A stretch of DNA of 64,000 bases from Escherichia coli (GTDB lineage Bacteria > Pseudomonadota > Gammaproteobacteria > Enterobacterales > Enterobacteriaceae). Below, one piece after another: positions 40,742 to 43,585 of this stretch. The translations under genes and the position numbers were made by a program. Numbering within the stretch: the first letter of the stretch is position 1; the number at the start of each line of letters is the position of its first letter. The stretch is from NCBI RefSeq assembly GCF_003334405.1, contig NZ_QOWM01000001.1, one strand, 5' to 3'. The notes under the pieces were generated by a model that searched no databases, had not been told where the DNA came from, and saw nothing but the letters and a program-made list of their open reading frames with translations.

Positions 40742-41797
40742 ATGGAAATAAGCTTTACCCGCGTGGCACTGCTGGCTGCCGCGCTCTTCTTTGTTGGTTG
40801 CGATCAAAAACCACAACCCGCCAAAACCCACGCTACTGAAGTTACCGTTCTTGAAGGCAAAACTATGGGTACCTTCTGGCGTGCCAGCATCCCGGGCATT
40901 GACGCCAAACGCAGCGCCGAACTTAAAGAAAAGATTCAGACCCAACTGGACGCCGACGATCAGCTGCTTTCGACCTATAAAAAAGATTCCGCGCTGATGC
41001 GCTTTAACGACTCGCAAAGTTTATCGCCGTGGCCGGTAAGTGAAGCGATGGCCGATATCGTCACCACCTCGCTGCGCATTGGCGCGAAGACCGATGGCGC
41101 GATGGATATAACCGTCGGGCCGCTGGTGAATCTGTGGGGCTTTGGCCCGGAACAACAGCCGGTTCAAATTCCGAGCCAGGAACAGATCGATGCGATGAAA
41201 GCCAAAACCGGCTTACAGCACCTGACGGTCATCAATCAGTCGCATCAGCAATATCTGCAAAAAGACCTGCCGGATTTATATGTCGATCTCTCCACCGTCG
41301 GCGAAGGCTATGCGGCCGATCATTTGGCACGCTTGATGGAGCAGGAAGGGATTTCCCGCTATCTGGTGTCGGTGGGCGGCGCGCTGAACAGCCGTGGTAT
41401 GAACGGTGAAGGCCTGCCGTGGCGGGTAGCGATTCAAAAACCAACCGATAAAGAAAACGCGGTTCAGGCTGTGGTGGATATCAACGGTCATGGGATTAGC
41501 ACCTCTGGCAGCTACCGTAACTATTACGAACTGGACGGCAAACGTCTTTCCCATGTTATCGATCCGCAAACCGGGCGTCCCATCGAACACAATCTGGTAT
41601 CCGTGACGGTGATTGCTCCGACGGCGCTGGAAGCCGATGCCTGGGATACTGGCTTGATGGTACTCGGGCCGGAGAAAGCTAAAGAGGTTGTTCGCCGGGA
41701 AGGGCTGGCGGTTTATATGATCACCAAAGAAGGCGATAGCTTTAAAACCTGGATGTCACCACAGTTTAAAAGCTTCCTTGTCAGCGAAAAAAATTAA
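40742..41797 (+). CDS. apbE: FAD:protein FMN transferase lipoprotein
   Basis: 351-aa ORF; lipobox FFVGC; recognised ApbE. Confidence 0.92.
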   Translation: MEISFTRVALLAAALFFVGCDQKPQPAKTHATEVTVLEGKTMGTFWRASIPGIDAKRSAELKEKIQTQLDADDQLLSTYKKDSALMRFNDSQSLSPWPVSEAMADIVTTSLRIGAKTDGAMDITVGPLVNLWGFGPEQQPVQIPSQEQIDAMKAKTGLQHLTVINQSHQQYLQKDLPDLYVDLSTVGEGYAADHLARLMEQEGISRYLVSVGGALNSRGMNGEGLPWRVAIQKPTDKENAVQAVVDINGHGISTSGSYRNYYELDGKRLSHVIDPQTGRPIEHNLVSVTVIAPTALEADAWDTGLMVLGPEKAKEVVRREGLAVYMITKEGDSFKTWMSPQFKSFLVSEKN

Positions 41798-41803
41798 AGC
41801 GCA
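41796..41803 (+). promoter_or_regulatory. Ada box (AAAGCGCA) in ada promoter
   Basis: Exact AAAGCGCA motif about 70 bp upstream of ada ATG, overlapping apbE stop. Confidence 0.5.
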
Positions 41804-41870
41804 AGATTGTTGGTTTTTGCGTGATGGTGACCGGGCAGCCTAAAGGCTATCCTTAACCAGGGAGCTGATT

Positions 41871-42935
41871 ATGAAAAAAGCCACATGCTTAACTGACGAT
41901 CAACGCTGGCAATCTGTCTTAGCCCGCGACCCGAATGCCGACGGCGAATTCGTTTTCGCCGTGCGTACCACAGGCATCTTTTGCCGTCCGTCTTGCCGCG
42001 CCAGACATGCTTTGCGGGAAAACGTCTCCTTCTACGCAAATGCCAGCGAGGCACTCGCCGCTGGCTTTCGCCCCTGCAAACGTTGTCAGCCAGAAAAAGC
42101 CAATGCCCAGCAACATCGGTTGGATAAAATCACCCACGCGTGTCGACTGCTGGAACAGGAAACGCCTGTAACGCTGGAAGCCTTAGCCGACCAGGTGGCG
42201 ATGAGTCCATTTCATCTACATCGGTTGTTTAAAGCGACTACCGGAATGACGCCTAAAGCCTGGCAACAGGCCTGGCGCGCTCGCCGTTTGCGCGAATCGC
42301 TGGCGAAAGGGGAGAGCGTGACGACGTCTATTCTTAACGCCGGATTCCCCGACAGCAGCAGTTACTATCGCAAAGCTGACGAAACGCTGGGCATGACGGC
42401 TAAACAATTCCGTCACGGTGGCGAAAATCTGGCGGTGCGTTACGCGCTGGCTGATTGTGAGCTGGGTCGTTGCCTGGTGGCAGAAAGCGAGCGGGGGATT
42501 TGCGCGATATTGCTGGGCGATGATGACGCGACACTAATCAGCGAGTTGCAGCAGATGTTTCCCGCTGCCGACAACGCGCCTGCCGATCTGATGTTTCAGC
42601 AACATGTGCGTGAAGTGATCGCCAGCCTCAATCAACGCGATACGCCGCTGACGTTACCGCTGGACATTCGCGGCACTGCTTTTCAGCAACAAGTCTGGCA
42701 GGCACTGCGCACGATACCTTGCGGTGAAACCGTCAGTTATCAGCAACTGGCTAACGCCATCGGCAAACCGAAAGCGGTACGGGCCGTTGCCAGCGCCTGT
42801 GCCGCCAACAAGCTGGCTATCATAATACCCTGTCATCGGGTGGTCCGTGGTGATGGCACACTTTCCGGTTACCGCTGGGGCGTGTCGCGTAAAGCGCAAC
42901 TGCTGCGCCGCGAAGCTGAAAATGAGGAGAGGTAA
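41871..42935 (+). CDS. ada: bifunctional transcriptional activator / O6-methylguanine-DNA methyltransferase
   Basis: 354-aa ORF; N-terminal Zn-Cys cluster FCRPSCRARH...CKRC; C-terminal acceptor motif PCHRVV. Confidence 0.96.
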   Translation: MKKATCLTDDQRWQSVLARDPNADGEFVFAVRTTGIFCRPSCRARHALRENVSFYANASEALAAGFRPCKRCQPEKANAQQHRLDKITHACRLLEQETPVTLEALADQVAMSPFHLHRLFKATTGMTPKAWQQAWRARRLRESLAKGESVTTSILNAGFPDSSSYYRKADETLGMTAKQFRHGGENLAVRYALADCELGRCLVAESERGICAILLGDDDATLISELQQMFPAADNAPADLMFQQHVREVIASLNQRDTPLTLPLDIRGTAFQQQVWQALRTIPCGETVSYQQLANAIGKPKAVRAVASACAANKLAIIIPCHRVVRGDGTLSGYRWGVSRKAQLLRREAENEER

Positions 42936-43585
42936 TGTTGGATCTGTTTGCCGATGCTGAACCGTGGCAAGAGCCACTGGCGGCTGGTGCGGTAATTTTA
43001 CGGCGTTTTGCTTTTAACGCTGCGGAGCAACTGATCCGCGATATTAATGACGTTGCCAGCCAGTCGCCGTTTCGCCAGATGGTCACCCCCGGGGGATATA
43101 CCATGTCGGTGGCGATGACCAACTGTGGGCATCTGGGCTGGACGACCCATCGGCAAGGTTATCTCTATTCGCCCATTGATCCGCAAACAAATAAACCGTG
43201 GCCCGCCATGCCACAGAGTTTTCATAATTTATGTCAACGTGCGGCTACGGCGGCGGGCTATCCAGATTTCCAGCCAGATGCTTGTCTTATCAACCGCTAC
43301 GCTCCTGGCGCGAAACTGTCGCTGCATCAGGATAAAGACGAACCGGATCTGCGCGCGCCAATTGTTTCTGTTTCTCTGGGCTTACCCGCGATTTTTCAAT
43401 TTGGCGGCCTGAAACGAAATGATCCGCTCAAACGTTTGTTGTTGGAACATGGCGATGTGGTGGTATGGGGCGGTGAATCGCGGCTGTTTTATCACGGTAT
43501 TCAACCGTTGAAAGCGGGGTTTCATCCACTCACCATCGACTGCCGCTACAACCTGACATTCCGTCAGGCAGGTAAAAAAGAATAA
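42935..43585 (+). CDS. alkB: Fe(II)/2-oxoglutarate-dependent DNA/RNA demethylase
   Basis: 216-aa ORF starting in the ada stop (ATGTTG overlap); HxD motif in LHQDKDE. Confidence 0.96.
   Translation: MLDLFADAEPWQEPLAAGAVILRRFAFNAAEQLIRDINDVASQSPFRQMVTPGGYTMSVAMTNCGHLGWTTHRQGYLYSPIDPQTNKPWPAMPQSFHNLCQRAATAAGYPDFQPDACLINRYAPGAKLSLHQDKDEPDLRAPIVSVSLGLPAIFQFGGLKRNDPLKRLLLEHGDVVVWGGESRLFYHGIQPLKAGFHPLTIDCRYNLTFRQAGKKE

Follow-up and report, generated by a model that had tools for sequence, protein, structure and literature searches.

The window analysed here is a stretch of 64,000 nucleotides of Escherichia coli DNA in which ompC, apbE, ada, alkB and yojI follow one another on the + strand. The coordinates of the genes and of the features between them are collected in Table 1. 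ApbE, Ada, AlkB and YojI all match NCBIfam equivalog models, and the scores of Ada and AlkB exceed the curated equivalog cut-offs, identifying the pair as orthologous to the ada-alkB operon. RefSeq annotation of identical E. coli DNA confirms the gene names. The Ada protein of the window is identical to PDB chains 1zgw, 1u8b, 1wpk and 1sfe over the lengths of these chains, the first two of which are N-Ada structures. Its translation contains the DNA-contact residues R45, R71, F114, H115 and R118 and the Zn/methyl-acceptor cysteines. No meaningful match to any Rfam family is found between positions 40600 and 43800.

This locus is present in 5422 of 5426 complete E. coli genomes. The comparison covers 80 species of Enterobacteriaceae; some counts refer to 81 loci, column counts to 79 aligned sequences and counts at the end of apbE to 78 species. 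The five genes keep their order in 80 of 80 species loci. The alkylation-damage operon had been described in the original prediction as packed directly against the upstream gene, and this description is accurate: the spacer between apbE and ada is 73 nt long, and the operator reaches into apbE.

Table 1. Genes and regulatory features from apbE to alkB, in window coordinates
Feature	Position	Strand	Basis
apbE (FAD:protein FMN transferase), upstream neighbour	40742-41797	+	ORF list; RefSeq annotation; NCBIfam equivalog NF007774, 725 bits
Ada operator of the ada promoter, AAATTAAAGCGCAAG	41791-41805	+	Motif matches, column conservation, literature
A box AAT, last sense codon (Asn351) of apbE	41792-41794	+	Codon counts across species
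apbE stop TAA, within the A/T-rich operator spacer	41795-41797	+	Stop-codon counts across species
Octamer AAAGCGCA, the classic 'Ada box' of the original prediction	41796-41803	+	Motif search
B box GCAA	41801-41804	+	Invariant in 79/79
Conserved block GATTGTTGGTTTTT (most genera GATTGCGGGTTTTT), B box to spacer	41805-41818	+	Column conservation 0.73-1.00
-10-like hexamer CAGCCT (CA-NNN-T)	41836-41841	+	Exactly 17 nt after GGTTTTT
Predicted ada-alkB transcription start zone	41847-41851	+	Placed from the -10 position
ada Shine-Dalgarno GGGAG, 6 nt before ATG	41860-41864	+	Sequence; AGGAG-type motif there in all genera
ada CDS, 354 aa	41871-42935	+	RefSeq annotation; NCBIfam equivalog NF011964, 751 bits (cut-off 345)
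alkB Shine-Dalgarno GAGGAG in the last ada codons (Glu-Glu), 5 nt before ATG	42924-42929	+	Sequence
TAATG, ada stop (TAA 42933-42935) and alkB ATG (42935-42937) sharing one A	42933-42937	+	Sequence
alkB CDS, 216 aa	42935-43585	+	RefSeq annotation; NCBIfam equivalog NF011930, 380 bits (cut-off 267)

The original prediction placed an Ada box at the apbE stop codon, and the octamer in question does cover the last two bases of this stop. Its distance from ada, given as about 70 bp, corresponds to 75 nt to the ada ATG when counted from the octamer's first base and 67 nt when counted from its last. Two longer patterns coincide with it. The older 13-mer consensus AAANNAAAGCGCA is matched at 41791-41803, and AAT-N6-GCAA is matched at 41792-41804 by AATTAAAGCGCAA. 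Counted over the window, the octamer occurs eight times where 4.4 copies are expected, and 8 of 100 shuffled sequences reach the same number, so that the bare octamer is not significant. AAT-N6-GCAA is not enriched either (10 copies, 15 expected). The 13-mer has a single copy in the 64 kb, with 0.07 expected. Because the bare motifs are not enriched, the case for an operator cannot rest on the motif alone, and its real support is position and conservation rather than octamer frequency.

In published accounts the Ada site at the ada promoter is given as the octamer or as AAT-N6-GCAA (PMC6505713, PMC3788762, PMC4437013), and comparison with these elements bears out the predicted identity of the motif. 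They also describe contacts to the B box by Ada residues F114, H115 and R118 (PMC3788762, PMC4437013). Definition of the site as an A box and a B box is attributed to He et al. 2005 in the papers that cite it (PMC6505713, PMC3788762, PMC4437013). Both ada and alkB are induced by MNNG or MMS (PMC6505713, PMC8643705). The unremarkable copy number of the octamer, uninformative by itself, leaves room for the view that its occurrence at 41796 is a chance match and that the true Ada site lies elsewhere. This view is hardly credible. The octamer and the AAT-N6-GCAA match are the only ones upstream of ada, the 13-mer has no second copy in the window, the site does not vary between genera, and the literature assigns this very sequence to the ada promoter.

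Another short match, a second AAAGCGCAA, lies inside ada (42891-42899, + strand, 37 nt before alkB) and was weighed as a possible internal site through which Ada would act on alkB. It was rejected. It has no A box (GCG stands at 42887-89), it is too near the alkB ATG, and it is accounted for by the codons Lys-Ala-Gln. Across species these positions drift freely, reading AAAGCGCAA in nine, AAAGCGCAG in seven, AAGGCGCAG in four and other sequences elsewhere.

Conservation at the operator follows a distinctive pattern. In 78 of 80 species the string AAT-TAA-A-NN-GCAAG shows no change, in contrast to the variable synonymous and spacer positions around it. Columns 41792-41798 and 41801-41805 are unchanged in 78 or 79 of the 79 Enterobacteriaceae sequences, but the 'GC' bases of the octamer (41799-41800) are variable, and about 76% of the species have A at each of them. 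As a result the exact octamer AAAGCGCA appears in only 10 of 81 loci, mostly from Escherichia, and most genera carry AAAAAGCA. The Salmonella form of the operator quoted in the literature, GAATTAAAACGCA (PMC3788762), is that of loci L024 and L025. Because the middle GC bases vary and AAT and GCAAG do not, the recognition unit that these alignments indicate as conserved is the A box plus B box (AAT-N6-GCAA), not the octamer. This pattern agrees with the site as He et al. 2005 defined it, by an A box and a B box. Thus, the original prediction was right as to the site and its position, and the octamer by which it named the Ada box is not the unit that is conserved. Since the A box is part of the operator, the overlap with apbE includes the last sense codon besides the stop.

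Codon usage at this end of apbE is strongly skewed. In 77 of 78 species apbE closes with AAT as its last sense codon, and in none with AAC, whereas asparagine codons inside the same genes are 59% AAC and 41% AAT. All 78 species use TAA as the apbE stop; the ada stop, by comparison, varies (TAA in 52, TGA in 21, TAG in 5). At one locus (L079) apbE ends at a TAG located 3 nt upstream of an intact AATTAAAGCGCAAG, which argues that the box is retained for its own sake. The AAT/TAA bias points to selection acting on the DNA. A different reading, that AATTAA is invariant on account of ApbE itself, through a C-terminal asparagine and efficient termination at TAA, is very unlikely. ApbE does end in asparagine in 77 of 78 species, and an A after TAA is generally known to make an efficient stop context. 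However, a constraint on the protein would permit AAC, the codon preferred internally, which is never used here. The residues leading up to the terminal asparagine vary (EKN, DKN, GKN, EQN, GAN, EPN), L079 keeps AATTAAAGCGCAAG despite its earlier stop, and the adjoining GCAAG, which is non-coding, is just as invariant.

Candidate promoter elements occupy the spacer downstream of the operator. A weak -35 region (GGTTTTT) may be placed at about 41812-41818, inside the conserved GATTGTTGGTTTTT block. The CA-NNN-T hexamer is the likely -10 element of the ada promoter. In 78 of 79 sequences these three bases (C, A and T) are kept, with a fixed and ungapped spacing to the apbE stop. At this hexamer the window and K-12-like strains read CAGCCT, in contrast to CAGACT in most E. 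coli and all other Escherichia, a difference at 41839; the window allele is present in K-12 derivatives (strain ER1709). Relative to the predicted start, the operator would lie at roughly -56 to -44 with the weak -35 downstream of it, an arrangement consistent with promoters of the ada/aidB type (about -60 to -40). In tiling arrays, the apbE segment that MNNG leaves unchanged ends at most 56 nt past the apbE stop, at an intergenic resolution of 7-14 nt (PMC6505713 supplement). A boundary inside the apbE-ada spacer agrees with the predicted start zone. A scan for consensus sigma-70 promoters upstream of ada found none in E. coli or three other genera, as expected for an activator-dependent promoter. 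RNA structure in the ada leader is not distinguishable from that of shuffled sequences. Nothing contradicts the assignment of the promoter.

At the other end of ada, the alkB ATG was correctly predicted to overlap the stop codon, with one base in common. TAATG or TGATG occurs at 73 of 81 loci, and the rest have gaps of 0-2 nt, an overlap offset by 4 nt, or assembly or frame problems. In Salmonella, for example, the junction is TAGcgATG; the overlap is lost and the operon is kept. Essentially all of the 81 loci have a GGAG/GAGG motif within the last 30 nt ahead of the ada stop. Scans of the junction reveal no promoter-like or terminator-like site. The two genes are reported to form one operon (PMC4437013, PMC8643705), and a single induced tiling-array segment spans both (PMC6505713). 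The alkB start is not sequestered by detectable RNA structure (minimum free energy -40.4 kcal/mol compared to -41.3 for shuffles, z = +0.27). Coupling by the opening of a structure is therefore unsupported, and coupling by termination and reinitiation is unaffected by this result.

Translational coupling between ada and alkB, which the original prediction asserted, is plausible, and the conserved overlap and the Shine-Dalgarno sequence inside ada are compatible with it. Single-molecule counts put basal Ada at about one molecule per cell, whereas only about 20% of cells contain an AlkB molecule, and then a single one (PMC8643705). Basal AlkB is thus about one-fifth of Ada, and coupling, if present, is not 1:1. 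It is quite possible, if short of probable, that alkB is instead translated independently from its own Shine-Dalgarno sequence and that the one-base overlap reflects genome compaction only. The strong GAGGAG 5 nt before the ATG, the lack of RNA structure occluding it, the 0-2 nt gaps that replace the overlap in several species and the basal AlkB:Ada ratio of about 0.2:1 (PMC8643705) would all suit independent initiation. Against this, the overlap persists at 73 of 81 loci although the C-terminal codons of ada and its stop (TAA or TGA) vary, which suggests selection on the junction, and stop/start overlaps with an upstream Shine-Dalgarno sequence are generally known to support termination-reinitiation in many cases.

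A related question is whether transcription of apbE ends before ada. Scans for intrinsic terminators between the apbE stop and ada detect none in E. coli or three other genera. A near-palindrome in other genera, GCAA-GA-TTGC followed by a T run, was considered as a terminator and rejected, having a loop of only 2 nt and no scan match. It might be proposed that unterminated apbE transcription reads through and accounts, in part or entirely, for the Ada-independent basal expression of ada-alkB, or that it disturbs the promoter. The terminator-free interval in all four genera would allow this, as would a spacer of only 73 nt and promoter elements that begin within apbE. However, basal Ada amounts to only about one molecule per cell (PMC8643705, PMC6818145) despite a good ada Shine-Dalgarno sequence, and this makes substantial read-through unlikely. 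Arrays also separate an unchanged apbE segment, ending in the spacer, from an induced ada-alkB-yojI segment, although these data record differential expression and are not a measure of read-through (PMC6505713). Overall, a read-through contribution of this kind is unlikely.

The features of the locus are those of well-known systems. Work on the ada promoter and the Ada box is said to go back to Teo 1986, Nakabeppu and Sekiguchi 1986, and Landini and Volkert 1995, and an ada-alkB operon with overlapping stop and start was reportedly described by Kondo et al. 1986. The E. coli K-12 ada promoter is at the same locus, has the same AAATTAAAGCGCAAG upstream of ada and a poor -35, and is activator-dependent, with no difference of substance from the window. 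Likewise, the known ada-alkB operon does not differ: its genes are the same, they overlap by the same one base in TAATG, and methylating agents induce them together. The E. coli alkA and aidB promoters share AAT-N6-GCAA with ada. Most ada promoters outside Escherichia read AAAAAGCAA, with the alkA-type core AAAGCAA. According to the literature, the site at alkA abuts or overlaps the -35 region and unmethylated Ada also activates, whereas at ada and aidB the site is farther upstream and the RNA polymerase alpha C-terminal domain is required. The alkA-ada operon of Pseudomonas putida is driven by a promoter that Ada activates and that carries ATT/AAT-N6-GCAA, and its Ada shares the DNA-contact residues (PMC3788762). 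However, its gene order is alkA-ada, its alkB is distant and constitutive, and there is no apbE neighbour (PMC3788762). The overlap with apbE is consequently a feature of Enterobacteriaceae.

Taken as a whole, the locus is very probably the ada-alkB operon of E. coli behind its classical Ada-dependent promoter, which abuts the 3' end of apbE, with alkB translation restarted by ribosomes that terminate on ada or initiated by free ribosomes. It is established that Ada, once methylated at Cys38, binds both boxes and recruits RNA polymerase to the ada promoter. Here, the operator would be AAT-TAAAGC-GCAA (41792-41804), in which the final asparagine codon of apbE serves as the A box and the apbE TAA lies inside. 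RNA polymerase would be recruited to a promoter with a poor -35 and a weak -10. The transcript would begin about 20-25 nt before the ada ATG and run through ada and alkB, apparently into yojI. Initiation of alkB would take place at the overlapping ATG, after the GAGGAG inside ada, either by coupled restart of ribosomes that end ada or by initiation of free ribosomes.

The Ada box, the ada promoter and the overlapping ada-alkB operon have been textbook knowledge since the mid-1980s, and the original prediction is in this respect correct but ordinary. The abutment of apbE can be seen wherever an E. coli genome is annotated. A literature search on both genes found nothing on the overlap of the Ada site with apbE. 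What is new is the survey of the stop/start overlap in Enterobacteriaceae, and the comparative data speak for AAT-N6-GCAA rather than for the older octamer. At the end of apbE, the last codon and the stop appear to be constrained at the DNA level by the operator, such that the end of a coding sequence doubles as a regulatory site.

A more speculative extension, which we regard as quite improbable, concerns the source of basal Ada. The operator and the end of apbE would be dual-use DNA, kept unchanged across Enterobacteriaceae. With no terminator between apbE and ada, the basal Ada pool of roughly one molecule per cell, which sets the stochastic delay of the adaptive response, might come from rare transcripts that run on from apbE and not from firing of the unactivated ada promoter. 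With the K-12-type CAGCCT, basal firing of this promoter would be rarer still than in most E. coli. The lack of a terminator after apbE and the common -10 polymorphism are two features to set against the basal level of Ada, whose source bears on cell-to-cell variation in mutation rate.

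The locus is the known E. coli ada promoter and ada-alkB operon, the type example itself and not a relative of it, so both the Ada box and the ada-alkB arrangement are already known. Of 5426 complete E. coli genomes, 5422 match the 2.2-kb stretch around the site at 95-100% identity, and RefSeq annotates the matching DNA as apbE, ada, alkB and yojI. Scores for the four proteins lie far over the curated cut-offs of the NCBIfam equivalog models. Over their lengths, the E. coli Ada fragments of known structure (1zgw, 1u8b, 1wpk and 1sfe) have the same sequence as window Ada. Its translation contains the zinc and methyl-acceptor cysteines C38, C42, C69 and C72, together with R45, R71, F114, H115 and R118, which are DNA-contact residues of Ada (PMC3788762, PMC4437013).

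Genes of the ada region (window coordinates)
Gene	Position	Strand	Basis
ompC	39527-40630	+	ORF
apbE	40742-41797	+	ORF; RefSeq; NCBIfam equivalog
ada	41871-42935	+	ORF; RefSeq; NCBIfam equivalog
alkB	42935-43585	+	ORF; RefSeq; NCBIfam equivalog
yojI	43661-45304	+	ORF; RefSeq; NCBIfam equivalog

Directly 3' of ompC, a strong terminator-like hairpin (40649-40668, AAAGGGCCTGCGGGCCCTTT followed by TTTTC) sets this highly expressed porin gene apart from apbE. In one matching genome, that of E. coli PSS-08-2 (NZ_AP027679.1, 2985946-2989494), an IS4-like IS421 element splits the window match in two. There alkB is annotated on either side of the element and seems to be disrupted by it.

The apbE gene ends GAA AAA AAT TAA, with its stop at 41795-41797. 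The original prediction placed an Ada box on this stop about 70 bp upstream of ada, and all of its coordinates are correct. The octamer AAAGCGCA (41796-41803) shares the final two bases of the stop and starts 75 nt 5' of the ada ATG; as this ATG lies at 41871, the apbE-ada spacer is 73 nt. Published definitions of the Ada site at this promoter are AAAGCGCA, the older one, and AAT-N6-GCAA, that of He et al. 2005 (PMC6505713, PMC3788762, PMC4437013). Because only one such site lies upstream of ada, the published mapped site coincides with the predicted one. Within the 64-kb window neither short motif stands out, with 8 copies of the octamer against 4.4 expected by chance alone and 10 copies of AAT-N6-GCAA against 15 expected. 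The 13-mer consensus AAANNAAAGCGCA occurs once, against 0.07 expected.

A second AAAGCGCAA, at 42891-42899 in the 3' end of ada and 37 nt before the alkB ATG, was rejected as an Ada site. It has no A box, encodes Lys-Ala-Gln and, used as a negative control, drifts freely across the same species, and is thus a coding by-product.

One Ada-protein scan of species-representative genomes yielded 80 Enterobacteriaceae loci, all of which keep the gene order ompC-apbE-ada-alkB-yojI. Of these, 78 have an apbE ending in AAT TAA and read AAT TAA A NN GCAAG across the junction. In the ungapped columns, 78-79 of 79 sequences share the same base at each position of 41792-41798 and 41801-41805. The intervening 'GC' of the octamer (41799-41800) varies, A being commonest at each position (~76%), and in the 15 apbE codons before the site, third positions have a major-allele frequency of just 0.43-0.92. 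Only 10 of 81 loci, essentially Escherichia, have the octamer in its exact form; most genera carry AATTAAAAAGCAAG, and the Salmonella form agrees with that quoted in PMC3788762. With AAT and GCAAG invariant around a variable middle, the A and B boxes together form the conserved unit. Since the A box, AAT, is the last sense codon of apbE, the overlap with this gene includes that codon as well as the stop.

Codon usage indicates that the constraint at the apbE end acts on the DNA, not on the ApbE protein. AAT is the last sense codon in 77 of 78 species; CAT stands there once and AAC never, against 59% AAC among the Asn codons elsewhere in these genes. TAA closes apbE in all 78, and ada stops are varied (52 TAA, 21 TGA, 5 TAG). 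At a single locus, L079:2402-2440 ('Escherichia sp. ESNIH1'), the operator lies just outside apbE, whose C-terminus differs and whose TAG stop immediately precedes an intact AATTAAAGCGCAAG; the box is therefore kept even where apbE no longer includes it. At two others, L023:2271-2501 (Citrobacter sedlakii) and L078:2264-2501 (Klebsiella indica), an insertion of ~155 nt separates the conserved promoter from the Shine-Dalgarno sequence of ada and lengthens the spacer to 227 and 234 nt, respectively, from the usual ~73.

Strong conservation extends 3' of the B box through 41805-41818, which reads GATTGTTGGTTTTT in the window and GATTGCGGGTTTTT in most genera. Only 2 nt past GCAA the block contains TTGC, which repeats the B box in inverted orientation. 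Candidate readers of the block are the second helix-turn-helix of Ada, sigma region 4 and alpha. Exactly 17 variable bases then lead to CA-NNN-T (41836-41841), whose C, A and T are kept in 78 of 79 sequences at a fixed, ungapped distance. From this pattern we infer a poor -35 and a weak -10 element. That reading fits an activator-dependent promoter and the failure of a consensus sigma-70 scan, which gave no match at the ada promoter in E. coli and three other genera. Transcription would then start at ~41847-41851, and the operator would lie between about -56 and -44. In published tiling arrays with an intergenic resolution of 7-14 nt, an apbE-covering transcript unchanged by MNNG ends <=56 nt beyond the apbE stop (supplement to PMC6505713); this end, inside the 73-nt spacer, agrees with the predicted ada start. 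Base 41839 in the -10-like hexamer is polymorphic, giving CAGCCT in the window and K-12-type strains and CAGACT in every other Escherichia species or clade sampled. Of 5426 complete E. coli genomes, 1186 contain the exact 33-mer with C, among them the K-12 derivative ER1709, and 3353 contain that with A.

Scans of the + strand found no intrinsic terminator in the apbE-ada spacer (41798-41870) in four genera, yet basal Ada is extremely low. Nor is there an intrinsic-terminator-like site on this strand of the window after alkB (43586-43660). As a single MNNG-induced segment also spans ada, alkB and yojI (tiling arrays, PMC6505713), read-through appears to extend the induction to yojI, a microcin-efflux gene.

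The alkB ATG (42935-42937) does overlap the ada TAA (42933-42935), as predicted, with one A in common (TAATG). At 73 of 81 loci the junction is TAATG or TGATG. The others show gaps of 0-2 nt (TAAATG, TGAtcGTG, TAGttATG and, in Salmonella arizonae and diarizonae, TAGcgATG), one longer overlap (ATGtTAG) or apparent assembly or frame problems. A GGAG-type alkB Shine-Dalgarno sequence lies within the last ada codons at essentially all loci; in the window it is GAGGAG (42924-42929), 5 nt 5' of the ATG. The RNA around the alkB start has no predicted structure beyond that expected from shuffled sequence (z = +0.27), so this start is not masked.

The original prediction also claimed translational coupling between ada and alkB. 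The junction geometry allows termination-reinitiation and, equally, independent initiation. Single-molecule counts give ~1 Ada per cell and one AlkB in just ~20% of cells (PMC8643705), so that coupling, if operating, is not 1:1. We give putative functional coupling about an even chance.

Once Ada is methylated on Cys38 and an electrostatic clash with DNA is relieved, it binds the A and B boxes and recruits RNA polymerase by way of sigma-70 and the alpha C-terminal domain (PMC4437013). The window has the elements on which this mechanism depends, and they are conserved. The comparisons make small additions to this known system: they favour the A box/B box definition rather than the octamer, point to a DNA-level constraint on the last codon and stop of apbE, and show that the ada-alkB stop/start overlap is conserved. 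The CAGCCT/CAGACT difference might influence basal ada expression, which is very low and has been studied in K-12.
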